Positions 8,162-20,054 of a stretch of 20,054 nt of DNA are shown piece after piece. How positions within the stretch are numbered: the stretch's first letter is position 1; each line of letters begins with the position of its first letter. The stretch covers positions 1-20,054 of the forward strand of contig JBBSWH010000018.1 of the NCBI GenBank assembly GCA_038046385.1, in the 5' to 3' direction. A program made the translations under genes and the position numbers. The notes under the pieces are model-generated. The model saw only the letters and a list, made by a program, of their open reading frames with translations. It made no database searches and was not told the DNA's origin. The stretch comes from Nanobdellota archaeon (GTDB lineage Archaea > Nanobdellota > Nanobdellia > Woesearchaeales > GW2011-AR4).

Positions 8162-9244
8162 ATGAAAGAGCCTACACTAGATAAAAAAGAGCAGCCAGAC
8201 AAAGAAAGTTATACACATTTTAATCACGAACACAACAGAAAAATTGCATTTAGGCCAGAACACCATAAATTGAAAAAAGCAAGAACATGGCAGATTGTGT
8301 CTGCTGTTTTGGGAATTTTATTGATTGTTTCTTTTTTTACAGGAAACTTTTTTGGGCCAAAGGCATCAGACTCAAACAAAAATATAGTGGCTGATAATAC
8401 TATTAAATATATCAACCAGAACCTTCTGCAGGGAAAAGGGACTGCAACATTAACGAATGTTGAAGAGTCAAATGGGTTATATTATCTTAAACTGAAAATT
8501 AATGGCCAGGAGATGAATTCTTATGTAACTCCAGACGGCAAATTGCTGTTCCCTCAGGCAATAGACTTGACAACAACCCCTCAAATAGAAAGTACACCGC
8601 AAGCTCCATCCAATATTCCTAAATCCAGCAAACCAAAAGTGGAATTGTTTATCATGTCCCATTGCCCTTACGGCACGCAAATCGAAAAAGGGATTATCCC
8701 TGTTGTAAAAGAATTAGGGAACAAAATCGATTTTGAAGTCAAGTTCGTAAACTACGCCATGCACGGAGAGAAAGAGCTGGATGAACAACTGCTGCAATAC
8801 TGCATTCAAAAGGATTATAAAAATAAATATATGGCTTATCTTGCCAAATTCCTTGAAAATGGAGATTCTAAAGAAGCTTTAACTGCTGCAGGGCTAACTG
8901 AAACTGCTTTGGCTAACTGCATTGCTGAAACTGACAAAACCTACAGGGTGACTGAATTATTTAATGATCCGCAAAAGACCATGTGGAGCGGCAGATTTCC
9001 TCCATTCAAAGTTTATGACGCAGAAAACAAAAAATACGGCGTGCAAGGATCACCAACACTTGTAATCAATGGAGAGCAAGCAGACACCGGAAGAGACGCG
9101 CAAAGTCTTCTTGCAGCAATCTGCAGCGCATTTGATGATAAGCCTGCAGAATGCAAAACAGACCTTTCTTCAGCCGGCAACCCGGCCCCGGGATTTGGGT
9201 ATGATACGCAGGGCGGTTCAGCAACAGCCGGATGCGGGGCTTGA
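8162..9244 (+). CDS. Membrane-anchored thioredoxin-fold (DsbA/DsbC-like) protein
   Basis: N-terminal TM helix, YVTPDGKLLF, VELFIMSHCPYG and YGVQGSPTLVING (cis-Pro loop). Confidence 0.8.
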   Translation: MKEPTLDKKEQPDKESYTHFNHEHNRKIAFRPEHHKLKKARTWQIVSAVLGILLIVSFFTGNFFGPKASDSNKNIVADNTIKYINQNLLQGKGTATLTNVEESNGLYYLKLKINGQEMNSYVTPDGKLLFPQAIDLTTTPQIESTPQAPSNIPKSSKPKVELFIMSHCPYGTQIEKGIIPVVKELGNKIDFEVKFVNYAMHGEKELDEQLLQYCIQKDYKNKYMAYLAKFLENGDSKEALTAAGLTETALANCIAETDKTYRVTELFNDPQKTMWSGRFPPFKVYDAENKKYGVQGSPTLVINGEQADTGRDAQSLLAAICSAFDDKPAECKTDLSSAGNPAPGFGYDTQGGSATAGCGA

Positions 9245-9399
9245 AGTTAACAACGGAATTTAACACAGTTTTTTCCATCGAAAATTTCCCCTCGAAGTTT
9301 GAGGCAACCCACAAACTTCAGAGATGGAGAATTTTTCAGAGCTGGCAAAAATTTGGGAGAGCAAGTGCAACGCAGCGAACCGCCTAATTCCTGTTAAGT
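9245..9399 (-). repeat. attC-like site 1 (terminal site of the array)
   Basis: + strand AGTTAAC-AACGGAATT ... ATTTGGGAGAG (9351) ... TAATTCCT-GTTAAGT. Arms pair with a 2-nt bulge; internal hairpins; begins right after stop codon 9244. Confidence 0.75.
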
Positions 9400-9548
9400 T
9401 CGTTTCCCATACGAAGTGTGGGAAACCTGCGTCCGCAGAGTAATTTTTAGTTGCTCGTGTTCTATCAAATGAGCGAAGCGATGCATCAAGAACAAGAATC
9501 AAGGGGGACATTTCGTAGTAGTTGTTAGTGATGGATTGTTCTGCTTAA

Positions 9549-10085
9549 TTATTCATATAACTCTTTAGGGACTTTAAACTCTTTATCAGAAAAAACTATC
9601 TCTTCTGCCTGAGAAATCGCCTTTTTACATACGTCCGTCATATGATCATATTTGCTTTTAACCTCTTTGCTGGTGATAGATGAGCTATATCTTGCAGTCT
9701 CTCTTTCATCCACATCTGATTTTTCCTCTTTCGTGCTGTACACCGTTATTCTGTCTATAAATTTGTCGTCGTATTCTATCAATCCGCCATCTTTAGCGTA
9801 TCTTAGGAAAAAAGAAGTGCACTTCTGGCTTCTGCTTTCAATTCCGAATTTTGTCAGGATAGCCAACGCACAATAGTAAAGGGTGTAAAACCATTCTTCA
9901 GGGATCTTATAGTCAAATCCTTTTTCCTTATAGAAATCGCAAAGCTGCAAGTTCACTTTTGCTTTTTGAATATATCCTTCTGCTGCCTTATTGTCCGGTT
10001 TTCCAACAAGAAGTCCCTTATGCTTTTTGCCTTTCTTCTCATCCTTTGCGGCGAGCACAAAGCAATCTCTCACTTCTTTTTTCAC
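9549..10085 (-). CDS. HEPN-domain protein (toxin of a HEPN/MNT pair)
   Basis: YIQKAK.NL...FYTLYYCALAIL.KFGIESRSQKCT...RETARY; coupled to the MNT gene by a 4-nt overlap. Confidence 0.8.
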   Translation of the reverse strand: MKKEVRDCFVLAAKDEKKGKKHKGLLVGKPDNKAAEGYIQKAKVNLQLCDFYKEKGFDYKIPEEWFYTLYYCALAILTKFGIESRSQKCTSFFLRYAKDGGLIEYDDKFIDRITVYSTKEEKSDVDERETARYSSSITSKEVKSKYDHMTDVCKKAISQAEEIVFSDKEFKVPKELYE

Positions 10086-10681
10086 TTTCTTGATATCTCC
10101 CTTATGAACTTAATAAATTTTTCCTGCCCGAATAAGATTATCCCTTTCTTTATAGCATCAATAAATATTTTGTTCGGATTTTCAAGCTCCTTTTTCAATT
10201 CTGATTGTGTAAAATTCAATGCATGTATTTTTTTAATCTGTGTCTTCTGTATTTTTTTAAGTGATTCTTCTATTTCCAAAAATTTATTCTTATTAGTTAC
10301 TCCTACAATATCAATGTCATTAGCTTCTTTTGGAGAATGGATAATGCTGCCATAGATCAAGAGGAAGTCCACTTTATTCCTTAATTCCTCAAAATTGCTC
10401 AGCCACCTTTGATTTTTTTGGGCATCTTGGGTTAATGCAAGGGATAATGTCTTTTCTACAATGGGATTTTCCCAGTTCAGGCTTATGCTATTGGCACTTG
10501 TCTTGCCTTCACCTATTGGAGAAAGAGTGAGTAGTTTCTCTGCTTCTAGCTTCTTAAGGATCTTCCACGTTCCTACCCTGCTTAATCCTATTTCTTTAGC
10601 TAAGCCAGTTATGGTTGGATTTATTGTAAAATCCTTTAGCAAGATTTTCAGGATTTTGATGCTTGGCTTTGTTGTTTCCAT
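10082..10681 (-). CDS. wHTH-fused minimal nucleotidyltransferase (MNT antitoxin)
   Basis: TITGLAKEIGLSRVGTWKILKKLE HTH; LIYGS....EANDIDIV Pol-beta motif. Confidence 0.85.
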   Translation of the reverse strand: METTKPSIKILKILLKDFTINPTITGLAKEIGLSRVGTWKILKKLEAEKLLTLSPIGEGKTSANSISLNWENPIVEKTLSLALTQDAQKNQRWLSNFEELRNKVDFLLIYGSIIHSPKEANDIDIVGVTNKNKFLEIEESLKKIQKTQIKKIHALNFTQSELKKELENPNKIFIDAIKKGIILFGQEKFIKFIREISRK

Positions 10682-10684
10682 TTT

Positions 10685-10724
10685 GTTAATAGTTATTAAC
10701 TGATGGTTAATACATGTATTTAAA
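10685..10724 (-). promoter_or_regulatory. Overlapping inverted repeats (putative autorepression operator) and TATA box of the MNT-HEPN operon
   Basis: GTTAATA-GT-TATTAAC (10685-10700) overlapping TATTAAC-TGATG-GTTAATA (10694-10712); minus-strand TTTAAATA at 10717-10724. Confidence 0.55.
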
Positions 10725-10803
10725 GGTTTTGGTTGTTGGCTTGAATAAGAAGAAGGTTAGGGCTATGGCATTTGATGGATAGATAATCGAGCGACTCTTA
10801 TCA

Positions 10804-11037
10804 TTAATTTTCATTTTTTTGAGTATCACTATAGACTATTACACCAATAGCTCCCGCAGTCCACGAAAGAGAATTTTCAATTAGATTCATAACTGCTTCT
10901 GCTTCTTGTAAATGGGTTCTAGCAAATGTTTGATTTTTAGTTTTATATTGGATTGGTACTATTAAAATTCCTATTGCTTTTGGATTTATTTTTTGACCGG
11001 CAGCAATTTTAAGAAAATCGTGAACAACTCGTATAAC
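10804..11037 (-). pseudogene. 5'-truncated gene, possibly the C-terminal half of a BglII/BstYI-like restriction endonuclease
   Basis: 77 open codons VIRVVHDFLKIAAGQKINPKAIGILIVPIQ...AIGVIVYSDTQKNEN* beginning at the GTT of site 2, with no upstream start. Family call is by motif resemblance (D.LK...IGILIVP) only. Confidence 0.65.
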
Positions 11038-11118
11038 AATGGACTTTGGTGAAGTCGCCGAAGGCGATTTGGGTGGAGAAACCCGTAAGGTTTCAGAGTC
11101 GGTTAAGCCCTGTTAAAT
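11031..11118 (-). repeat. attC-like site 2
   Basis: GTATAAC-AATGGACTT..GAAGT-CGCCGAAGGCG-ATTTGGGTGGA-GAAACCCGTAAGGTTTC..TAAGCCCT-GTTAAAT. Confidence 0.8.
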
Positions 11119-11986
11119 GCCCCGACGACCGAAGGGAACCTTACTGTTCACCGGAACAAGGATTTGAGAGATTTATCGTTCTCTTTAGATAAATTTTGAA
11201 GGACCTGAAATATTAGTTCACAATTCGAAGCCCATATGCCTAATAAATGAAGTGAGATCCCCGCGTCCTAGAAGAAGATTCGGCATCTTGATGCTAGTAA
11301 CGTATGCTTCTCTCTCCTTATTGTTATCTTCTCTAACGTAGACTTTGATGAGCATACTGCAGGGGTATTCCTCTTCAGGATTTTTTGAGTCAACCCACGC
11401 ATCACTTGCTTTTTGGATGGCATCTGGGACGTAGTATCCGCTCCCAGAATCATAGAATGAAACCAGCATAGCCCCTTCAGGTGTAGCACTTATGAAATAA
11501 TCATCATGGGAATGCTTCCAGCGGCGACGCAGATCTCCAGAAGCAACTTCCCCGCGCGGATTAATTATTGGAGCCAACAGCCCGGGATAGAATCTTAGTG
11601 AGATGTCATAAGGACTCTCATCTCCTTCATCGGAAAGACTCTCTCTTTTCAAGTACTTAACCTGGATAAACTCTTGAATTTGGATGTTATGAGGAGGATT
11701 TCCACTGTAAAAATGATTCACTCCTTGCGGAAACAGAAGCCAGTACTCGGCGCTTGAGTTATGAAGAACAGCGCCTAATCCAGGCATAGTTTTTAGCGGC
11801 AATTGCTGATGGAGACTTAAGAATTCTTCAATCCCGAGCGCATCAAAACCACCTTCCCTAATTCTTTCCAGAGTCGCATTAAAAGCCTGTGCGATATTAT
11901 TTTCCAAAGGCATACTACTGGGAAGTAATCCTTAGTTTATAACGGTTTTGAAACATCCACCGGATATTGACACGCGAGGTATTTAA
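11037..11986 (-). mobile_element. Gene cassette B (single unknown gene)
   Basis: Ends GTTAAATGCCCCG (11112-11124) and CGAGGTATTTAAC (11975-11987) are complementary with one G-T and one mismatch. Confidence 0.7.
11218..11913 (-). CDS. Hypothetical cassette protein
   Basis: 231-aa ORF filling cassette B; TTATAAA TATA-like box about 23 nt upstream. Confidence 0.8.
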   Translation of the reverse strand: MPLENNIAQAFNATLERIREGGFDALGIEEFLSLHQQLPLKTMPGLGAVLHNSSAEYWLLFPQGVNHFYSGNPPHNIQIQEFIQVKYLKRESLSDEGDESPYDISLRFYPGLLAPIINPRGEVASGDLRRRWKHSHDDYFISATPEGAMLVSFYDSGSGYYVPDAIQKASDAWVDSKNPEEEYPCSMLIKVYVREDNNKEREAYVTSIKMPNLLLGRGDLTSFIRHMGFEL

Positions 11987-12095
11987 CATCGCGGTTTTCT
12001 GAAGTTTTTTGGCGAGGCATCCCACGCCAAAAAATTTGGGAGAGCTACGAACGAGCTTGGCGAGCGAGAAGTGAGCCAGTTAACCGCTGTTAAAT
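11981..12095 (-). repeat. attC-like site 3
   Basis: ATTTAAC-ATCGCGGTT..GAAGT-TTTTTGGCG..CGCCAAAAA-ATTTGGGAGAG..TAACCGCT-GTTAAAT; GCGGTT/AACCGC pair perfectly. Confidence 0.82.
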
Positions 12096-12260
12096 GCCTT
12101 TGCCCTGCGGAGTGGGGCAAAGTTTCGTTCGAAAAGTTCGAAAACCCGCCGTACGTAAATCCCCGTTGTCGCCGCAGCCCCCTCTTAGACTACCACTGGA
12201 CATCTCTGGGCAAGGTTTATAAAGCAGTTCTATATAATATATGAAAATAAAGGAAGGGAT

Positions 12261-13118
12261 ATGCCAAACAATATTTTAAGGGGAATCTTGAATATAGCTT
12301 CATTTAAGAATAATGACCTAAAAGGCTATGCTTCTACTTACTTAAATAGAATCAATGCAGTTGGTGAACAATTAGAATTTTACATTAAAGATGCAATTGC
12401 CTCTTCCTTCAAGCTGCCTCATGAAAAAAAGCAAGAAGCATATTCTAAAGTTTTTGCTTGGCTTGGCAACCAAAACCACCCTCCAGACATTATAATCAAG
12501 AATGGGGACGCTTTTGAGATAAAGAAAATTGAAAGCTTAAAAAGTGCGCTTGCCTTGAATAGCTCTCCGCCAAAAAATAATCTTCTTGCTGATGACATCA
12601 GAATAACAGCTGACTGCAAAAAATGTGATGGTGGAAATTGGAAAGAAAAAGAGTTATTTTACGTTATTGGCAATGCCAAAGGAGGCATTATAAATTACCT
12701 TTTCTTTGTTCATGGCACTTGTTACGCCGCGGATCATGAAGTTTATGAGAAAGTTCACAGCCCAATAAAAAAAGAAGTTGATTTTGTCCTTGATTCTCTT
12801 GGATTGGAAAAGGGCGAAACTGTAGAATTAGGAAAAGTTAAAAGAGTAGACCCTCTTGGAATCACTGAACTAAGAATCAGGGGGATGTGGAGCATAGAAA
12901 ATCCACTTAATGTTTTTGAAGACTTTTGCCAAATTGAAGATAACAAATTTCATTTATTTGCGTTAATAAGGAAAGATAAGTATCTTTCTTATCCTAAAGA
13001 AGACATCAAAGAATTGGAGTCCAATAAGGAAATTTCTGTTAAAGACGTAAAAATTAAAAGCCCAAATAACCCTGCTAATCTAATGGAGGCAAAGCTAATA
13101 GCTTTTACAATAAAATGA
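12261..13118 (+). CDS. Type II restriction endonuclease, NgoPII family (likely GGCC)
   Basis: NRINAVGEQLEFYIKD, LGNQNHPPDIIIKNGDAFEIKKIES, LALNSSPPK, VDPLGITELRIRGMWSIENP; overlaps a C5 MTase gene. Confidence 0.88.
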   Translation: MPNNILRGILNIASFKNNDLKGYASTYLNRINAVGEQLEFYIKDAIASSFKLPHEKKQEAYSKVFAWLGNQNHPPDIIIKNGDAFEIKKIESLKSALALNSSPPKNNLLADDIRITADCKKCDGGNWKEKELFYVIGNAKGGIINYLFFVHGTCYAADHEVYEKVHSPIKKEVDFVLDSLGLEKGETVELGKVKRVDPLGITELRIRGMWSIENPLNVFEDFCQIEDNKFHLFALIRKDKYLSYPKEDIKELESNKEISVKDVKIKSPNNPANLMEAKLIAFTIK

Positions 13119-14155
13119 AAATAGCATCATTTTTTTCAGGAGCCGGAGGATTGGATTTAGGCTTTACTAATGCAGGCTTTAAGCTAGCTTTTGCAAATGA
13201 CAATTGGGAAGGCTGCTGGGAAACTTTTGAAAAAAACCATAAAATACCAATCAATAAAAAATCAATCACCAAAATAAAAGCTGATGAAGTCCCTGATGTT
13301 GTTGGATTTGTTGGCGGGCCGCCTTGCCAAAGCTGGAGCCTTGCCGGGGCGATGAGAGGAATAAATGACCCAAGGGGCAAAGTGTTTTATGACTATGTGA
13401 GGCTAATTAAAGGCAAAAAGCCATTATTCTTTTTAGCTGAAAATGTTGCAGGGCTATTATCGAGCAGCCATTACCCTGAATTTATGAAAATAGTCAATGC
13501 TTTTAAGGGAATTGGATACAATGTTTCATTTAAAATGCTTGATGCAAATGATTATGGCGTTCCACAAGAAAGGAAAAGAGTAATTGTTGTTGGCTACCAT
13601 GAGAAATTAGGAAAAAAGTTTGAGTTTCCAAGCCCATTAAGCCAAAAGCTAACACTAAAAGATGCAATTTCTGATTTGCCAGAGGCCACTCCCGCAAGCC
13701 ATTATAATAAAACAAATGGAAAATTAGATATTTATAACCACGAATACATGAATGGCGGATTTTCTACTATTTATATGTCAAGAAACAGGGTAAGAAACTG
13801 GGATGAGCCTTCATTTACAATTCAAGCAGGCGGCAGGCATGCCCCTTGCCATCCAAAAGCCCCAAAAATGAAGCTAGTTGGGGAAGATAAAAGAGAATTT
13901 ATTAAAGGCAAAGAAAACCTTTATAGAAGATTATCAATAAGAGAATGTGCCAGGATACAAACGTTTCCGGATGATTTTGTATTTCATTATGATAATGTTG
14001 CTGATGGCTACAAGATGATTGGAAATGCTGTCCCTGTTAGATTGGCTGAAGCGCTGGCAAAGCAGATTATGAAAGACCTTAAAGAAATAAAAACCCAAGA
14101 AAAATGGCAGACAAATTTAGCAAGGCAAAAAGAAGCGCAATTATGTCTAGAATAA
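13115..14155 (+). CDS. dcm: DNA cytosine-5 methyltransferase (M.HaeIII/M.NgoPII-like)
   Basis: FSGAGG, GGPPCQSWS, ENV, QERKRV, TRD FSTIYMSRNRVR.WDEPSFTIQAGGRH, YKMIGNAVP. Confidence 0.96.
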   Translation: MKIASFFSGAGGLDLGFTNAGFKLAFANDNWEGCWETFEKNHKIPINKKSITKIKADEVPDVVGFVGGPPCQSWSLAGAMRGINDPRGKVFYDYVRLIKGKKPLFFLAENVAGLLSSSHYPEFMKIVNAFKGIGYNVSFKMLDANDYGVPQERKRVIVVGYHEKLGKKFEFPSPLSQKLTLKDAISDLPEATPASHYNKTNGKLDIYNHEYMNGGFSTIYMSRNRVRNWDEPSFTIQAGGRHAPCHPKAPKMKLVGEDKREFIKGKENLYRRLSIRECARIQTFPDDFVFHYDNVADGYKMIGNAVPVRLAEALAKQIMKDLKEIKTQEKWQTNLARQKEAQLCLE

Positions 14156-14511
14156 GGTCAAAAAATACTTCTTTAGAGGTTGAGTTCAGGAAGCTACTTT
14201 GGAAAAATGGTCTTGGGCGGTACCGCATTCATTATAACTTGCCCGGTAAGCCTGACATTGTTTATGTTTCTAAAAAAATTGTAATTTTTCTTGATGGCGA
14301 CTTTTGGCATGGCTACAATTGGAAAAAATTGGGCAAAGTGCCGCCTAGAAAATACTGGCAGAAGAAAATACAAAAAAATATTGACAGGGCTAAAAAATAC
14401 AACAAGATGCTTAAAAAAGATGGCTGGAAAGTTATTAGGATTTGGGAGCATGATGTGAAGGAAAGTCCCGAAGAGTGCATCAGCAAAATAATAAATATTC
14501 TTAATTTTTAG
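14104..14511 (+). CDS. vsr: Very short patch repair endonuclease
   Basis: MADKFSKAKRSAIMSRIRSKNT..E, LPGKPDIV, IFLDGDFWHG, GWKVIRIWEH. Confidence 0.95.
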   Translation: MADKFSKAKRSAIMSRIRSKNTSLEVEFRKLLWKNGLGRYRIHYNLPGKPDIVYVSKKIVIFLDGDFWHGYNWKKLGKVPPRKYWQKKIQKNIDRAKKYNKMLKKDGWKVIRIWEHDVKESPEECISKIINILNF

Positions 14512-14516
14512 TAAGG

Positions 14517-15035
14517 TTAGCATAATTTATTTTTCAAATAATCTACAAAAAACAATGCTGATTTGTATAACTCATAAATCTCTACTGAAGTTTTCTCTAA
14601 GAAGAAAGTAGCAAAATTTTGATGTATTAGCCTATCCCTTGTTAATCCTATTTCGAGGAAAGACTTAATCCCTTGCTCTAACTCTGGCGTTGATTTTACA
14701 TCGTCCTCAGCTTGTTTTTTAAATTCATCTCCAAAAATTTTAAAGAATCTATTGGCATTTTTGTCTGTGTCAAAGTCAAAATAAGTGTAGTATTGGCGAT
14801 TAATCCCCTTAAACTTACTAAAAAATACCAATCTGCCATCTTTTATTTTTGTTTCTACAAACTTATTCAATATATCCAAAATTTGTTGCTCAAAATAACT
14901 AGCAATCGCTATAACTAAAACTTTTTTAAAATTATTATCCGCCTCACTTCTCAGTGAAGGTTCTTCTTTTTCTTCTAAATAATGTAATAATTCCAAGTGC
15001 CTTTTATAGAATTCATCTATTATGCTGTCTACCAT
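14517..15035 (-). CDS. HEPN-domain protein (RiboL-PSP/MAE_28990-like)
   Basis: IASYFE N-terminal motif and RDRLIH (RxxxxH); directly downstream of the DUF262 gene. Confidence 0.8.
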   Translation of the reverse strand: MVDSIIDEFYKRHLELLHYLEEKEEPSLRSEADNNFKKVLVIAIASYFEQQILDILNKFVETKIKDGRLVFFSKFKGINRQYYTYFDFDTDKNANRFFKIFGDEFKKQAEDDVKSTPELEQGIKSFLEIGLTRDRLIHQNFATFFLEKTSVEIYELYKSALFFVDYLKNKLC

Positions 15036-15044
15036 TGAAAATGA

Positions 15045-16211
15045 TCATTGCAATAAAATTTCTTGGGCTCTTTTTATTCTTGTTAAGACATTCTTTTTAC
15101 TAGTGGTTTGTCTTTGAATTGCCTCACTAAAATCTTTGTCTTCCCTAAGTGTGTTAAGCTTATCAGCATCAATTACTTGAACATCAGTATCATCACTTTG
15201 ATAAGGTTCATATGTAGCAGCAACAAAAACAGCCTCAAACATTGAAACATTAAATTGACCTGATTGTGTTAAAAAAACTTTATTAGGTAAACCACCACAC
15301 GCATCTAAAAATTTTTCAAATAACTCTTTTAAGTTGTTTATTTTTTGTATAGTGAAGGTTTTACTTTTTTGAGAAAATGAATTAAGAAATTTAACCATTG
15401 AAGGCTTATAACTTTCATTTTCCATTAACATACCAAACCCCCTAACTATGATTTCTATATCCTTCATATGTAAATCTGGTTCTGGTTTTGTTAATCTTCT
15501 CCACTTACTATCCAAGTTTAATTTTGAAAGCATATCATAGAAATCTGAATGGTATAAACTAGCTCTTATTTCTTGTGGATTTAAATTCATCCCGCCAGTG
15601 TTTAACCTGTAAAATATTTCGTACATTGCAGAATGATCGTCTGGTGGATGACTTTGTTTTATTATAACAATTCTTATAGTTCTTAAGTCGAATGTTTTTT
15701 TATCATTATCCTCTAAAGTTGAATAATTTAAATCATCTAGCCTGTTATTAAGTTCAGGAACTAGTTCCGTCAGCTTTAGATTAAAATCTGTAAAATAATT
15801 ATTATTTTCAAGGAGCCTATCTGGAATTTTACCTTCAGTGTCAAAGACTTTTCTTAATTCAATCCTCTTATCTGGTCTAGGGAATCTTTTTTTAATAAAA
15901 TAATAGATTGTCATAAGTCTTTGTTGACCATCTATTACCAGAAAGTCATTCTTATCCTTTTCGTATAAAAATACTTGAGGAACTGGCAACCCCATAATTA
16001 TGGACTCTATTAATTTGGAAGCTCTTTTTATGTCCCAAACATAATTTCTTTGAAACCCGGGAATCTTAACTATGCCCTTTTCCATAAAATCAAATATGGT
16101 TTTTGTATTAAAATCATTTGGAGATGAAGTTATATTATATTCTAGAGGTGTATCTTCTCCTTCATAATCATCTTCCTCAGGCATTACCCAATTTTCTTCA
16201 TTATTTGCCAT
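15045..16211 (-). CDS. DUF262 (GmrSD/ParB-like) domain protein
   Basis: IPGFQRNYVW, LIESIIMGLPVP, VIDGQQRL, IFYRLNTGGMNLNPQEIR. Confidence 0.92.
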   Translation of the reverse strand: MANNEENWVMPEEDDYEGEDTPLEYNITSSPNDFNTKTIFDFMEKGIVKIPGFQRNYVWDIKRASKLIESIIMGLPVPQVFLYEKDKNDFLVIDGQQRLMTIYYFIKKRFPRPDKRIELRKVFDTEGKIPDRLLENNNYFTDFNLKLTELVPELNNRLDDLNYSTLEDNDKKTFDLRTIRIVIIKQSHPPDDHSAMYEIFYRLNTGGMNLNPQEIRASLYHSDFYDMLSKLNLDSKWRRLTKPEPDLHMKDIEIIVRGFGMLMENESYKPSMVKFLNSFSQKSKTFTIQKINNLKELFEKFLDACGGLPNKVFLTQSGQFNVSMFEAVFVAATYEPYQSDDTDVQVIDADKLNTLREDKDFSEAIQRQTTSKKNVLTRIKRAQEILLQ

Positions 16212-16327
16212 AAATACTGGAGGTCTTTAACAGTTTAAATTATTTACTATTATTTATCGCACTAAGTAGGTGACAACATAAAGGGGATTTACGTTTTAGT
16301 ATCAGGGTAGGCGGGTTTTCGAATTGC

Positions 16328-16466
16328 ATTTAACATCGGCGTTTGGCGAAGTTTCTAGGGCGTGCTTTAAAGCAAGGCTAGGGAGTTGCGAAGCAAAAAT
16401 TTGGGTGGAGTGGAGTTCGGCTACGAAGTGGACGAACGGAACGTAACCTCATAATTCCTGTTAGCC
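16328..16466 (-). repeat. attC-like site 4
   Basis: ATTTAAC-ATCGGCGTTTGGCGAAGT...ATTTGGGTGGAG (16399)...TAATTCCT-GTTAGCC. Confidence 0.82.
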
Positions 16467-16558
16467 GACCGAGCCTACGAAGTGGGCGAGGCTTGAGTTT
16501 TCTTACTGCCGAGAATCAGATAGGTGCCGTAGTTTTTACTTACTTTAATATCAATAAC

Positions 16559-17513
16559 TGCGAAGCAGAGTATTGTTTAGAGAGAGCTTTTTTTATCGAA
16601 ATCTTGATTGTTATTTATGTATTCGTTTGAATAATTTTTCAATATTAACCATGACATTATCAATATGTTTTTTAAGTAGTTTAACTATTAGGTATCTTCC
16701 AATAGCAATTATTACAATTGTAAAAAATACGTATGACCATTTAAATGAATAACTAAAAGCCACTCCTGGTTTATAATAATTTAATGTATTTTGAGACATG
16801 GATTCATCTAGAAGAGATTTATCATAAGATAGAATTAGTTGCCCATCAAGGTAATCTTCATTTGCTGGCTTTGATATAATGGGATTATAACTTCTTTTAA
16901 ATAAAAAACATTCTGGCAAAATTAGATTTATTTTCCTTATTCTGTTATCTAGCATGATGGTTTCGAAGGTAAATTGCTTTTTACCATCAATTTTTTTTAC
17001 ATAGTCTTTAACTTCATATGCAGTAATTAGATAAAACTCATTGAAAGGGGGAATTTTAGTATTAGAAATGTCCAATATATAATAATTGAAAGCATCATCA
17101 TTGTAGTAATAAAATTGATTTGAACGATCAATTTGGTTATTGTCTATGGATTTAATTAACTGTGAATTCAATATTTTATTTACACCAAAGGTATAATAGT
17201 TTTCTTTCAAGTCTAGTATAGAATTATTATAATTAGGTATATGGAAATGTCTTGTTACAGTTATATCGTTAGAGAAGCAATGTAATTTAAGTTCTATGTC
17301 AGTAAATGATTTGATGTCGTTAATTCCTGCAGATGAAAAACTAGATAATAAAAGGATGAATATGATTAAACTGATGATTGTTTTCATTATATAATGGATT
17401 GTTTAGTTATATATAAAACATTTGATACTCTATTAACTGTTCTGAACTAATTAATTTATTAAAGGAAAATAATCTTTAATAAATCATTGCGAAGCAGACT
17501 AGTGTTTAGAGAG
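16559..17513. repeat. 26-bp imperfect direct repeats flanking the 258-aa gene
   Basis: TGCGAAGCAGAGTATTGTTTAGAGAG (16559-16584) vs TGCGAAGCAGACTAGTGTTTAGAGAG (17488-17513), 24/26 identical. Confidence 0.8.
16611..17387 (-). CDS. Exported protein with signal peptide and C-terminal TM anchor, function unknown
   Basis: MKTIISLIIFILLLSSFSSA signal-like N-terminus; YVFFTIVIIAIGRYLIV TM followed by a basic tail. Confidence 0.8.
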   Translation of the reverse strand: MKTIISLIIFILLLSSFSSAGINDIKSFTDIELKLHCFSNDITVTRHFHIPNYNNSILDLKENYYTFGVNKILNSQLIKSIDNNQIDRSNQFYYYNDDAFNYYILDISNTKIPPFNEFYLITAYEVKDYVKKIDGKKQFTFETIMLDNRIRKINLILPECFLFKRSYNPIISKPANEDYLDGQLILSYDKSLLDESMSQNTLNYYKPGVAFSYSFKWSYVFFTIVIIAIGRYLIVKLLKKHIDNVMVNIEKLFKRIHK

Positions 17514-17687
17514 GGGGCTGTTTTTGGTTCTTTTTCTGAAAAAGAAAATTTATGCTAGGACATTAGGGAGTGATTCAAACGTCCTAACTCACTAAGTAGT
17601 AGATTGGTAATCTACCGAGTTTGACAACTTCTCTACCCCAGTATATTAGATATGAGAATAAATAATTAATTTGAAATATTTTAACAT

Positions 17688-18176
17688 TTAAAATTTTTGT
17701 TCAAATAGCTCATCTAGTAAGTCATATATTGATTTAAAGTCCTTAAACTTTTTAGGCTTTTTGATGCACTTCTGTAAAGAACTCTTGTCTAGGTTTCTAA
17801 TTTCTTCAATTAGTTGCCTACTTAAATTAGGTTTTTTATCTCTATACACTTTTCTTGTTTTATGACAATCCAAGAAACCTTCAAAATTTTCTTCACTAAA
17901 ATAGATATAATTTTTATGTTCTTTAATTTCATCAGTTATCTTCTTTTGATTCTTGAAAGTGTCTGAATCGTAAACATAAACTATTATTACAGATAAGCCT
18001 TTTAAAAATTTTGATTTTCTTATGGCATTCACTATATCATTTGTTTTAGAATTGGGCTTTAATACATAATTATTTGAGATTATTTTGTTACCCTTTAATG
18101 CTTCAAAATAGTTTTTTTCAGAATCCCCTTCACAATATATGTGAACTATTTTTTTACTCATTCTCTTTATATACAT
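17688..18176 (-). CDS. RloB/AbiLii-like (TOPRIM-like) protein
   Basis: IYCEGDSEKNYF, YVYDSD and SEENFE motifs; overlaps the ATPase gene (start probably ATG 18161). Confidence 0.8.
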   Translation of the reverse strand: MYIKRMSKKIVHIYCEGDSEKNYFEALKGNKIISNNYVLKPNSKTNDIVNAIRKSKFLKGLSVIIVYVYDSDTFKNQKKITDEIKEHKNYIYFSEENFEGFLDCHKTRKVYRDKKPNLSRQLIEEIRNLDKSSLQKCIKKPKKFKDFKSIYDLLDELFEQKF

Positions 18177-19383
18177 GGGGAAATCCTCCTAAAACACCTT
18201 CTCTGTAATACTCCCCATAATCTTTGTTGATTTTAGGATTATTCTTAACGACATTATGAAGATTAATTATTTTGCTAACTGAATCATCTTTTTCAATTAT
18301 ATTAATTTGATCACTCCTTAAATAGTTTAATACTTCTGGTTGGTGTGTCGTAAACAAAAGTTGAGACCCGTTATCTTTTTTTGAAAAACTATTTAGGATA
18401 AATTCTACTATTTCGATATTATAAGATGTTTCAATTTCATCATAAAGAATTATGGAGTCTTTTGATAATTTTAATAAGTTATAAAATATTAAAATAAACT
18501 TTTGTGTTCCACTAGATTCCGCGTTGAAATTAATCTTAATAGTTTTATTTTTATGTTTGTGGATTAAATCTAAATCCATAATTTCTTTCTCACTTATTTT
18601 TTGGTTCATGGTTCCTTTATCATCTGTTTGGATAAGTTCAATTGTCTTAATCTTTCTTTTAACTAATTCTAAATCACTAATCGAAAAATCAGCAAATGAT
18701 AAATTATCCAAAAGGTTGCCTTTCAACTTTTTATCTTTTAATAATTCAAAGTCTGGTGGCATATTGAACAAAGTATTAATTACAATTATTTTAGAAAAAA
18801 AATCATATATGGGTTTCAGTGTTTTTGAGTTTAATTGTACTGCTCTTGAAAGCATTAAAGTTTGAGGTATGACACTATGTGTTAATAGTTTTAATTCCTT
18901 CTCAAATTTTTTATTAGTAAATTGAAATCTTTTGTTAAGATTATCTTCATCCCTTGTAAAAATCTCTTTTGGTTTTTGTGTTTCATAAACTATTGCAAAT
19001 TCTTTTACTATTTTTTTATTTGTGTATGAAAACCCATAAACATATTTTTTATTTTCAGATATAAATGTTAGTTCAAATTCAGTAGGTTTTCCTTGTTCTG
19101 TAATAAAAGGAGAATACCTAATATTAGTGTCTACATTATGTTTTTGAGAATTTAAAACCATCTCTTTCATAAAGTTCAAACCTGAAAGTAAAGATGTTTT
19201 TCCTGAACCATTAACACCTACAAGTCCGGAAGTCTTTAAAATATCTAAACCATTTATTTTAGTTATAAACTTTGTTCCAGTTTGTTCTTTAGATTTTCTT
19301 TCAAAGCTTAAAACATCCCCTTCTTTGTATGAGTTATAGTTTTTTATTTTAAATTCAATTATCATATTCTTAGGAATGTACAT
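18154..19383 (-). CDS. RloA/AbiLi-like AAA_21 (ABC-type) ATPase; true start probably ATG 19365
   Basis: IEFKIKNYNSYK, Walker A GVNGSGKT, ESSGTQK, Walker B ILYDEIE, QLLFTTH, YREGVLGGFP. TTTAAATA at 19388-19395 is 23 nt from ATG 19365. Confidence 0.9.
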   Translation of the reverse strand: MYIPKNMIIEFKIKNYNSYKEGDVLSFERKSKEQTGTKFITKINGLDILKTSGLVGVNGSGKTSLLSGLNFMKEMVLNSQKHNVDTNIRYSPFITEQGKPTEFELTFISENKKYVYGFSYTNKKIVKEFAIVYETQKPKEIFTRDEDNLNKRFQFTNKKFEKELKLLTHSVIPQTLMLSRAVQLNSKTLKPIYDFFSKIIVINTLFNMPPDFELLKDKKLKGNLLDNLSFADFSISDLELVKRKIKTIELIQTDDKGTMNQKISEKEIMDLDLIHKHKNKTIKINFNAESSGTQKFILIFYNLLKLSKDSIILYDEIETSYNIEIVEFILNSFSKKDNGSQLLFTTHQPEVLNYLRSDQINIIEKDDSVSKIINLHNVVKNNPKINKDYGEYYREGVLGGFPHVYKENE

Positions 19384-19578
19384 CTAGTATTTAAATGTTT
19401 GCATTTTATTCATTATTTTCCTGTTTTCTTTTAAAAAATAATGGAAAATGAGAAAATAAGTCTTTTTTTAAACTTATTTTATTTTTAGAGCAACGAAATT
19501 GTGAGTATATATGTGCGTAGTGCCAGCCCCCTCTCAGTCTAAAGTAAGTAAAAATTTGGGTGAAGCGAAGCGTAACCG

Positions 19579-19890
19579 TTAAACTAATGTTAGAAAAATT
19601 CCTCTTACATTCTTCACTGCTTGAGTGATTAGTGCAGATATTAGAGAACTGATTGCTCCACCAATATACCCATAAATTAATGTTATAATCTGCTGTGAAA
19701 GTAAATCTGCGAAAGCTGAGTCTCCAGAAGCAGCAACTGTTACCGTCTTAAGTGAAAACATAATCAAAGGAACTGCACCAGCTACACCTGCAACCGTTCT
19801 AAGATCTTTAACTATCTTATTTGAAAAAGCAAAACCGAGTCCAGCACTACCTAATATATCAATAATTAATACAAATACATCAATTTCCAT
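19579..19890 (-). CDS. Small three-TM membrane protein
   Basis: 103 aa hydrophobic; stop codon lies inside GTTTAAC. Confidence 0.75.
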   Translation of the reverse strand: MEIDVFVLIIDILGSAGLGFAFSNKIVKDLRTVAGVAGAVPLIMFSLKTVTVAASGDSAFADLLSQQIITLIYGYIGGAISSLISALITQAVKNVRGIFLTLV

Positions 19891-19996
19891 ATATAACAGG
19901 AAATAGTTACACTTTTTATTTTTTTCTACAGTTTAACGAAGGCACCTATCTAAAGGATTCGAGGTTTACCGACGGAGGAGGCAGTAAGAAAATTTT

Positions 19997-20054
19997 GGCT
20001 AACATCGGAATTTGGCGAAGTCGTTTAAGTTCCGCAGAACATTAAATGATTTGG
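19997..20054 (-). repeat. attC-like site 5 (cut by window end)
   Basis: GGCTAAC-ATCGGAATTTGGCGAAGT-CGTTTAAGTTCCGCAGAACATTAAATG-ATTTGG. Confidence 0.8.

Follow-up and report, generated by a model that had tools for sequence, protein, structure and literature searches.

Background

Integrons are the textbook gene-capture machine of bacteria, with an integrase whose ancestry is generally traced to Xer recombinases; to our knowledge, no intermediate between Xer and the integron integrase is known. The classical attC site has unpaired central spacers, extrahelical bases between its R and L boxes and a variable loop. Here, a stretch of 20,054 bp (in the following the window), which is the entire contig C18 (JBBSWH010000018.1) of an archaeal bin (Nanobdellota archaeon, GCA_038046385.1; 1.28 Mb in 19 contigs, 85% complete, 38% G+C), was analysed with respect to a family of palindromic sites that forms an array from position 9241 rightward, with four complete sites and one truncated site. 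The region is likely to be the distal part of an integron-like gene-capture platform that evolved from Xer/dif and uses folded single-stranded sites. According to a preliminary description, the array is integron-like and its attC-like sites are atypical and branched; the analysis supported this proposal: the element is not scattered through the genome, cargo boundaries in relatives fall at the cores of the sites and a candidate recombinase exists. C1, C11 and C18 denote contigs of this genome, G numbers other genomes and L numbers fetched loci.

Among other Xer-based systems, the integrative mobile elements exploiting Xer (IMEX) of the CTX type have the attP of a filamentous phage, which arises when single-stranded DNA folds and on which XerCD acts at dif. 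Archaeal dif is a single site with 11-nt inverted arms and a 6-nt spacer. The pdif sites are short duplex XerC/D sites that occur in alternating orientation on plasmids; pdif modules are not known to have long structured palindromes, an array next to a recombinase gene or a pairing rule for neighbouring arms. For Archaea, the available part of Ghaly et al. 2022 (PMC9668308) reports integrons of the IntI type in 75 of 6718 genomes. The literature that was searched, with subscription journals and supplements outside the search, contained only such IntI-type archaeal integrons and nothing on Xer-type arrays.

The locus described here shares with integrons a recombinase gene that faces away from an attI-like site, followed by a one-strand cassette array; cassettes that end in imperfect palindromes with AAC...GTT cores, with the crossover in the core and arms shared by neighbours; one strand favoured for folding; and accessory, toxin-antitoxin and defence cargo. 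It differs from integrons in its XerA paralog without the IntI insertion and its dif-derived attI, in a 2-nt bulge, a conserved branched centre (GAAGT...ATTTGGG) and stems that extend into the cassette ends, and in open reading frames (ORFs) that run both ways, at least one cassette with its own promoter and cassettes of up to 6.8 kb. The architecture is an integron in mirror image, built from Xer/dif parts. CTX-type IMEX are similar in their Xer-family enzyme, in two inverted dif-like cores that pair in single-stranded DNA as a bulged dif mimic and in tandem stacking, whereas the present arrays have a probably dedicated paralog with its own target beside its gene, no phage functions and many units per array. 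The pdif modules of Acinetobacter plasmids are, according to the available parts of the literature on them, likewise discrete gene modules bounded by Xer-type sites. Archaeal XerA/dif, as far as covered by the available parts of PMC2958812 and PMC8371274, has the same protein family, the same target of arm, 6 nt and arm, and cleavage inferred at the arm/centre junction, but the array-type lineages found here are associated with cassette arrays and do not belong to the canonical group.

Structure of the sites

On the + strand, the element consists of a 10-nt left arm ending in TAA, the dinucleotide CA, 2 nt and a 6-nt arm GNNNTT, followed by a centre in which a hairpin is opened by GAAGT and closed by the ATTT of the invariant ATTTGGG(T/A)G and in which one or two small hairpins follow, and by a 3′ part made up of TAA-NNN-C, TG-TTA and the right arm. 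The five positions and the skeleton TAACA-NN-GNNNTT...GAAGT-hairpin-ATTTGGG(T/A)G...TAANNNC-TGTTA given in the preliminary description were both borne out, with four sites complete, the fifth cut by the contig end and CACAG instead of GAAGT in site 1. A covariance model, R1, was built on seven sites (four from the window and three from two relatives), and the following E values refer to it. Site 1 (9241..9403, + strand; left core TAACA at 9248-9252, right core TGTTA at 9392-9396; E 2e-11) is the distal end of the array as detected and comprises the left arm TTGAAGTTAA, the core TAA|CA, a branched centre with ATTTGGGAG, the L′ arm AATTCC, TGTTA and the right arm. It is followed, always on the + strand, by site 2 (11027..11122; TAACA 11034-11038, TGTTA 11111-11115; E 2e-14), which is the shortest complete site, site 3 (11977..12099; TAACA 11984-11988, TGTTA 12088-12092; E 1e-15), site 4 (16324..16470; TAACA 16331-16335, TGTTA 16459-16463; E 1e-9), whose L arms pair imperfectly, and site 5 (19993..20054; TAACA 20000-20004), of which only the 5′ half is present (R1 positions 1-48, E 0.0012), the contig end cutting the ATTTGG. 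The proposed pairing of the inner arms holds for sites 1 and 3 (6 of 6 positions) and for site 2 (5 of 6) and breaks down in site 4, where GGCGTT/AATTCC contains one mismatch and one G-T pair. Outward, the sites continue into inverted repeats that are specific for each cassette.

In an alignment of 73 sites, which was fitted to R1 and in this respect leans towards the model, 94.4% of the cells were paired and 13 of the 20 pairs change on both sides; compensatory cells numbered 195 compared with 50 ± 5.5 in shuffles, and pairing in slid controls reached just 28-53%. Four inner-arm positions are free to vary yet remain complementary, and hairpin 1 retains a G-T pair in 65 of the 73 sites. For sites 2-4 of the window the + strand folds better than the - strand by 6-17 kcal/mol (RNA parameters). 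The motif C-GNA-G (CGNAG) was counted 109 times on the site strand vs 9 times on the opposite strand, with corresponding counts of 64 vs 3 for CGAAG and 16 vs 0 for GCGAAGC. Since GCGNAGC and d(GNA) loops are reported in the available parts of PMC13037366 and PMC3201870 to be extraordinarily stable DNA mini-hairpins, the strand bias of the GNA motifs supports a fold of the + strand as single-stranded DNA. The TAAC/GTTA cores, the covarying stems and the strand asymmetry are those of an attC-type palindrome, whereas the geometry departs from that of classical attC by the fixed 2-nt bulge on the 5′ arm only and by a centre that is both conserved (GAAGT...ATTTGGG) and branched.

It is quite improbable that the sites work as double-stranded DNA only, with the right core on the - strand (TTTAA-CAGnnn-TTAAnnn) being a duplex Xer-type site and the palindromes being, for example, bidirectional terminators or insulators. 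The right core does have the layout arm / 6 nt / arm, and on the - strand the conserved centre is CCCAAATTTTT, with an oligo-T run at which transcription of - strand genes could stop. However, arms that are 80-200 nt apart covary, the cassette ends carry specific inverted repeats, the GNA loop motifs and the conserved G-T pair show a strong strand asymmetry, and the neighbour-arm rule described below requires both cores to be paired in the circular form.

R1 gave no other match in the 1.28-Mb assembly, and neither did simple word searches; genome-wide scatter in the manner of repetitive extragenic palindromes (REPs), which the preliminary description had named as evidence against its proposal, was not seen; this genome has the element in the array and nowhere else. 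A dispersed repeat or structured RNA gene without a role in recombination, such as a REP, a miniature inverted-repeat transposable element (MITE) or an element of a 3′ untranslated region, is accordingly very unlikely. The fold is stable and conserved, as it would be in such an element, and Rfam, of which a permissive search of the window gave only chance-level matches for the sites, is blind to undescribed families, but the element is not dispersed, it is found only in arrays next to a recombinase, and both the neighbour-arm rule and the matching attI-like arm would be left unexplained. An assignment to REP/MITE was rejected because the element is confined to arrays, and a CRISPR-like array was rejected because of the irregular spacing and the genes inside.

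Cassette boundaries and crossover position

The right arm of each site (TG|TTA-N5) was compared with the left arm of the next site (TTG-N5-TAA|CA) in 49 neighbouring pairs from 17 arrays, the window included. Full complementarity over 5 nt was observed in 31 of the 49 pairs. Neighbouring arms matched on average at 4.1 of 7 scored positions, 2 of which never pair, while the mean was 2.5 for the two arms of the same site (7 of 69 reach 5) and 2.1 for random arm pairs. The complementarity of neighbouring cores that had been noted for the window stands for sites 2 to 3, for sites 3 to 4 (the right arm of site 3, TTAAATGC, is complementary to the left arm of site 4) and nearly in full for sites 4 to 5 (right arm TTAGCC of site 4 and left arm of site 5), and fails for sites 1 to 2. 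No partner for the left arm of site 1 was found further left in the window.

A second line of evidence came from G064, in which a gene-less unit of 300 bp is duplicated beside the recombinase. The copies, taken together with the terminal site, place the exchange point within T-T-T-A-[A/T]|C|A of the left core, and a variant core TATCA in this genome covaries with TGATA as the neighbour-arm rule predicts. The neighbouring arms, the G064 duplication and the match of the attI-like arm found in 14 of 22 loci (see below) locate the crossover within the core, as in integrons, and show that cargo boundaries in relatives fall at the cores, on which the preliminary description had made its proposal depend.

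The stretches of 110 nt that lie just inside either end of a cassette are complementary to each other in a cassette-specific way (mean local score 12.3 vs 7.7 for mismatched ends), and this end complementarity exceeds the 95th percentile of the control in 33 of 43 cassettes; in a circular unit, the site would therefore fold into a long branched rod. Between families, the end modules of cassettes (57-81 nt) share 90-98% identity. In the window, positions 9433-9510 and 16493-16574 match cassette ends of other families (G082, G170 and G171) at 90-98% identity, and these end stretches are far more conserved than the proteins of these genomes.

Recombinase and attI-like site

Twenty array regions of other genomes were picked by site position alone, and ten of these hold a XerA-family gene on the TGTTA side, which lies on the site strand, is transcribed away from the array and is 0.3-7 kb from the last site. 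A XerA-family gene on the opposite side of the array was found in none of the 20 regions; about eight of the other ten run into a contig end on the TGTTA side. The same geometry was seen in all of 13 further contigs, which were chosen for co-occurrence, each being named in both the R1 site list and the XerA-family list (the latter and the R1 order tally include the unpublished genome G168, and the XerA-family list also G148; both genomes enter these counts only, and no locus was fetched from either). The integrase that had been predicted to lie to the right is thus matched by a XerA-family gene on that side in 23 examined loci of other genomes, where the gene lies on the TGTTA side and the site strand. 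As in integrons, the recombinase gene has an attI-like site beside it and faces away from the cassettes.

The present genome has three PF00589 genes, of which two belong to the XerA family (on C1 and C11) and the third is a weak match. The C1 recombinase of 271 aa begins 175 bp from the start of C1 and points inward, as lower-scoring XerA-family genes very often do, 150-900 bp from the start of their contigs. Most likely, this gene encodes the array recombinase of this genome and the assembly broke inside the array; together with the 23 loci it provides the candidate recombinase that the proposed array calls for.

The IntI-type insertion that the preliminary description had expected in the enzyme is absent, and the enzyme is a XerA-family paralog. 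The C1 protein aligns end to end with XerA (4a8e) and to IntI4 (2a3v) in two pieces that are broken at the IntI insert, TIGR02249 reaches 198 bits on it against a cut-off of 265 and is split in two stretches, and the 31 array-type proteins do not exceed 20 canonical XerA proteins in length; an IntI-type integrase was thus not found for this system. The best model for the array-type recombinases is NF040815 (XerA equivalog, curated cut-off 220 bits), which gives 265 bits for the C11 XerA (above the cut-off), 200 bits for the C1 recombinase (below it) and 221.6, 217 and 207 bits for the array-type proteins of G064, G042 and G149, respectively. The catalytic residues R-K-H-R-H-Y are kept in 30-31 of the 31 array-type proteins, and no alignment column was found that separates these from the canonical recombinases.

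In a maximum-likelihood tree of 51 proteins, a branch (85/87; 87% of bootstrap trees) sets apart the 20 xerA genes that are distant from arrays, and the array-adjacent and contig-start genes fall outside this canonical group in several well-supported lineages; one row, L105, was moved from the class 'far' to 'contig start' after a first quick tree. The C1 recombinase groups with the array-adjacent genes of G149 and G088 (99/92).

Upstream of the array-type genes, the sequence (T)TAA|CAnCTA|TTAAnCG is followed by an inverted copy of the right arm. This attI-like site has the dif layout of left arm, 6-nt centre and right arm, with a centre and a right arm that differ from those of dif. In 14 of 22 loci, its left arm and the right arm of the last site are complementary (at least 7 of 8 positions), over distances of up to 6.9 kb, which identifies the cassette core TAA|CA as the arm/centre junction. 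Xer-type enzymes cut at this junction according to the available part of PMC8371274. In the folded site, the 2-nt bulge leaves the + strand with a 6-nt centre, and on the - strand the right core forms another dif-like core in inverted orientation. Canonical xerA genes, on the other hand, have the dif-like palindrome TTCGTATAA-TGTATA-TTATACGAA within approximately 100 bp upstream in at least 11 of 21 cases; such palindromes were located at C11:47142 in this genome and in L097, L100, L101, L104, L107, L109-L111 and L115. The plain palindrome stands upstream of canonical genes only, and no R1 sites were found in 17 canonical xerA loci. In Thermococcales, dif does not adjoin xerA according to the available part of PMC2958812, whereas here both canonical and array-type genes have a site just upstream.

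These results bear on the possibility of an IMEX-like pile-up, in which hitch-hiking elements would use the ordinary Xer/dif of the host and accumulate in tandem at a dif-like site without a dedicated platform. The dif layout of the attI-like site and the two inverted dif-like cores of each site would fit such a pile-up, as would the single XerA-family gene next to the array in G064 and G170 and the scores of several array-type genes at or near the XerA cut-off (G064, 221.6 vs 220). Nevertheless, in genomes with both genes a plain dif stands upstream of the canonical xerA itself and sites are absent from its vicinity, the array-type genes lie outside the canonical group, and the cassettes are without replication or transfer genes of their own, many of them measuring 0.1-0.9 kb and some being gene-less. 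A pile-up of this kind is therefore considered unlikely, and a dedicated platform is preferred.

In the named genome collection, a search with the C1 recombinase returned only Bacteroidota genes of approximately 40% identity (L020-L043), several of which are near contig ends; no R1 sites were found near them in 24 loci, a search that covered the R1 family only. A protein atlas gave just generic integrase clusters and, for S19e, a weak hint of Nanobdellota, and the neighbours of the C1 recombinase there include candidate-phyla bacteria. In G121 (C1:217262-217828, L090) and G132 (C19, L089), the array-adjacent recombinase is broken, with one stop codon and one frameshift, and the arrays of these genomes may be frozen.

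Distribution of the sites

The preliminary description had suggested that a new covariance model be built from the sites and scanned over this genome and DPANN genomes, and the scan with R1 found the family in arrays on one strand. In an even draw of the order, 67 of 151 genomes (65 of 144 genera; 44%) had R1 matches, or 66 of 150 when the unpublished G168 is left out. Matches were obtained in 17 of 41 genomes of the genus and in 62 of 151 genomes of a phylum-level draw, where the matching rows listed all belong to the same order or the same class (10 of the latter), which places the family in further orders of the class as well. A strict pattern matched 4 of 60 relatives, and the reversed control gave 0 matches in 61 genomes. 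Examples of arrays are eight sites within 6 kb in G109:C3, six sites in G102:C2 and five sites in G042:C2. Many R1 matches lie at contig ends, as in the window. In G014, which belongs to the same genus, a site is 8.8 kb from the same ribosomal-protein cluster as in the window, and the intervening content is unrelated.

The spread of the family also bears on the possibility of a classical integron, or of an attC cluster without integrase (CALIN), with IntI and standard attC as reported in Archaea. The TAAC...GTTA cores of the sites fit RYYYAAC/GTTRRRY, and archaeal integrons have been published (PMC9668308, as far as available). Yet neither XerA-family gene of this genome has the IntI insertion and the third PF00589 match is weak, a 2-nt bulge takes the place of unpaired central spacers, the branched centre is conserved, and 44% of the order stands against 75 of 6718 archaeal genomes in the available part of that paper. 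This explanation has hardly any probability; a classical IntI integron was rejected on the missing IntI insertion and the non-classical site geometry. With the IntI insertion and the classical attC geometry lacking, and without co-oriented promoterless cassettes, the system is called integron-like and is not regarded as a member of the integrons. Some attC calls of PMC9668308 could overlap this site family.

Proposed mechanism and significance

The mobile unit would be CA-[site body]-TG-TTA-N5 ... cargo ... TTG-N′5-TAA, with N5 and N′5 complementary. Its site, an imperfect palindrome of approximately 85-200 nt on the + strand, would fold as single-stranded DNA into an outer stem (arm and TAACA against TGTTA and arm), the 2-nt bulge, a 6-bp covarying inner stem and a branched centre, the latter with the conserved GAAGT...ATTTGGG hairpin and rich in C-GNA-G DNA mini-hairpin loops. 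The folded stem would mimic the dif layout of arm, 6-nt centre and arm. A dedicated tyrosine recombinase of the XerA family is predicted to act on these sites and to cut the + strand at TAA|CA, the arm/centre junction, and the cut strand would be exchanged with the dif-derived attI-like site TAA|CAnCTA|TTAAnCG just upstream of the recombinase gene. Cassettes would thus enter beside the recombinase and stack outward. Folding of the single strand in vivo, exchange of one strand and circular intermediates are expected from this model.

Several observations weigh against the proposed platform, to which the fitting of the covariation alignment to R1 has to be added. Full complementarity is missing in 18 of the 49 neighbouring pairs, including sites 1 to 2 of the window, and most non-complementary pairs have gaps of more than 1.5 kb or mis-registered matches; the inner arms of site 4 pair poorly, and 8 of 22 loci are without a matching attI-like arm. 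The + strand might also fold as RNA. Two well-assembled arrays (G064:C2 and G070:C1) have no recombinase within approximately 10 kb. The tree is unrooted and the support for the canonical group (85/87) is moderate, and G064, which is 100% complete, and G170 have one XerA-family gene only, which is array-adjacent, so that a dedicated and a housekeeping enzyme are not clearly separable there. In the assembly, C18 and C1 are not physically joined. The unbiased orientation of the cassette ORFs is unlike that of classical integrons. Finally, no circular forms were seen in four (X4, X6, X8 and X9; metagenomes as short Logan contigs) of 16 public runs, which are groundwater or unlabelled metagenomes. 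Joints in the runs were weak and none lay at a core: 9395->16496 was found in one contig and 16580->19541 with 7 extra letters in two runs, the sides measuring 21-35 letters, and neither these joints nor uncovered stretches served as evidence.

On a wider claim our judgement is evenly balanced, namely that a class of small-genome archaea, probably DPANN, independently turned XerA/dif into an integron, in which a XerA paralog and a dif-derived attI would capture cassettes whose sites of approximately 100-300 nt fold as single-stranded DNA into a GNA-stabilised, bulged dif mimic; that this platform is present in approximately 40% of the sampled genomes; and that it stores defence, toxin and methyltransferase genes and exchanges cassettes across families. 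If true, the integron principle would have arisen a second time, by convergence, and the platform would be a living model of the origin of IntI/attC from Xer/dif. In the arrays described here, a complete integron architecture rests directly on an enzyme of the XerA type and a target resembling dif. The system would offer a model for the origin of attC/IntI and support folded single-stranded DNA as a general substrate of tyrosine recombinases. It could further account for the way in which these archaea, whose genomes are very small, keep and exchange genes for defence and toxins, and for the breaks of their assemblies at these loci. Standard integron finders look for the IntI insert and for classical attC and will probably overlook this system, so that surveys of archaeal gene mobility may undercount.

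Cassette content and other features of the window

The left third of the window contains core genes, i.e. those of the ribosomal proteins S19e and L31e. A thioredoxin-like gene (8162..9244, +) abuts site 1, its stop codon lying inside the left arm of this site. The gene is accessory, not core: among 40 other genomes of the genus, one has it. A homolog in G055 is flanked by sites on both sides, and the array may once have reached further left than site 1.

The cargo of unit 1 (9549..10681, -) consists of a 178-aa ORF without family and a 199-aa helix-turn-helix protein with a weak DUF6932 match below the Pfam cut-off, which also matches PDC-M05A. Unit 2 (11218..11913, -) holds a 231-aa ORFan, which cannot serve to test mobility because no homolog was found in the 150 other genomes of the order. 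In unit 3, a promoter (12194..12240, +) with the host motif CACTGGACA, 13 nt and the TATA box TTTATAAA precedes a restriction gene; the first part of the cargo (12261..14511, +) comprises a restriction endonuclease of the NgoPII type, a C5 cytosine methyltransferase and a Vsr nuclease, and the second part (14517..16211, -) a HEPN (RiboL-PSP) protein and a DUF262/GmrSD_N protein matching NsnA. The host motif CACTGG(A/T)CA, which is sometimes doubled, is a host promoter or operator motif as judged from the sequence, with 35 copies in the genome (including C1:120), mostly 12-14 nt before TATA boxes. A doubled copy was also noted upstream of the array-type recombinase genes in several genomes.

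Between site 4 and site 5, a 258-aa ORF without family (16611..17387, -) is followed by an AbiL module (17521..19458, -) with AbiLii/RloB at 17688-18176, AbiLi/AAA_21 at 18154-19383 and its own end repeats GAGAGGGGGCTG and CAGCCCCCTCTC. Over 1980 nt, this module shares 72.6% identity with a cassette that lies between two sites of the G042 array; G042 belongs to a different family. A relic 3′ half-site (approximately 19548-19597, +) with ATTTGGGTG, a GCGAAGC mini-hairpin and TTAAACTAA-TGTTA has lost its left core, and a small hydrophobic ORF of 103 aa lies at 19579..19890 (-) and has a weak DUF2975 match. The relic indicates that unit 4, which the preliminary description had treated as a single cassette, is a fusion of at least two former cassettes.

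The cargo of 48 other cassettes (93-6815 bp, median approximately 720 bp, many of 0.1-0.9 kb and some gene-less) was surveyed on the basis of 80 ORFs of at least 70 aa. These include five S-adenosylmethionine-dependent methyltransferases, four Fic and two ParE proteins, two type IIG enzymes, NsnA, AbiL and regulators. The defence-rich content that had been attributed to the cassettes applies to the window, with its restriction-modification genes including Vsr, its NsnA-like protein and AbiL, and gives way to a mixed content in other arrays. Genes occur in both orientations without bias across arrays (37 ORFs on the site strand vs 43 on the opposite strand), and in place of promoterless, co-oriented single ORFs read from a Pc promoter, as in integrons, mixed strands, multi-gene units and the separate promoter at 12194 were found.

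At the left end of the window, positions 1-54 are a 54-nt sequence (CGTTGCTTTTACCTAAAGG...) that recurs at the ends or starts of C2, C7, C12, C14, C16 and C17, and Rfam gave a weak partial HgcC match at positions 1-66 (E 0.52). This repeat is probably an insertion sequence or another assembly-breaking repeat; two more families of end repeats close other contigs of this genome.

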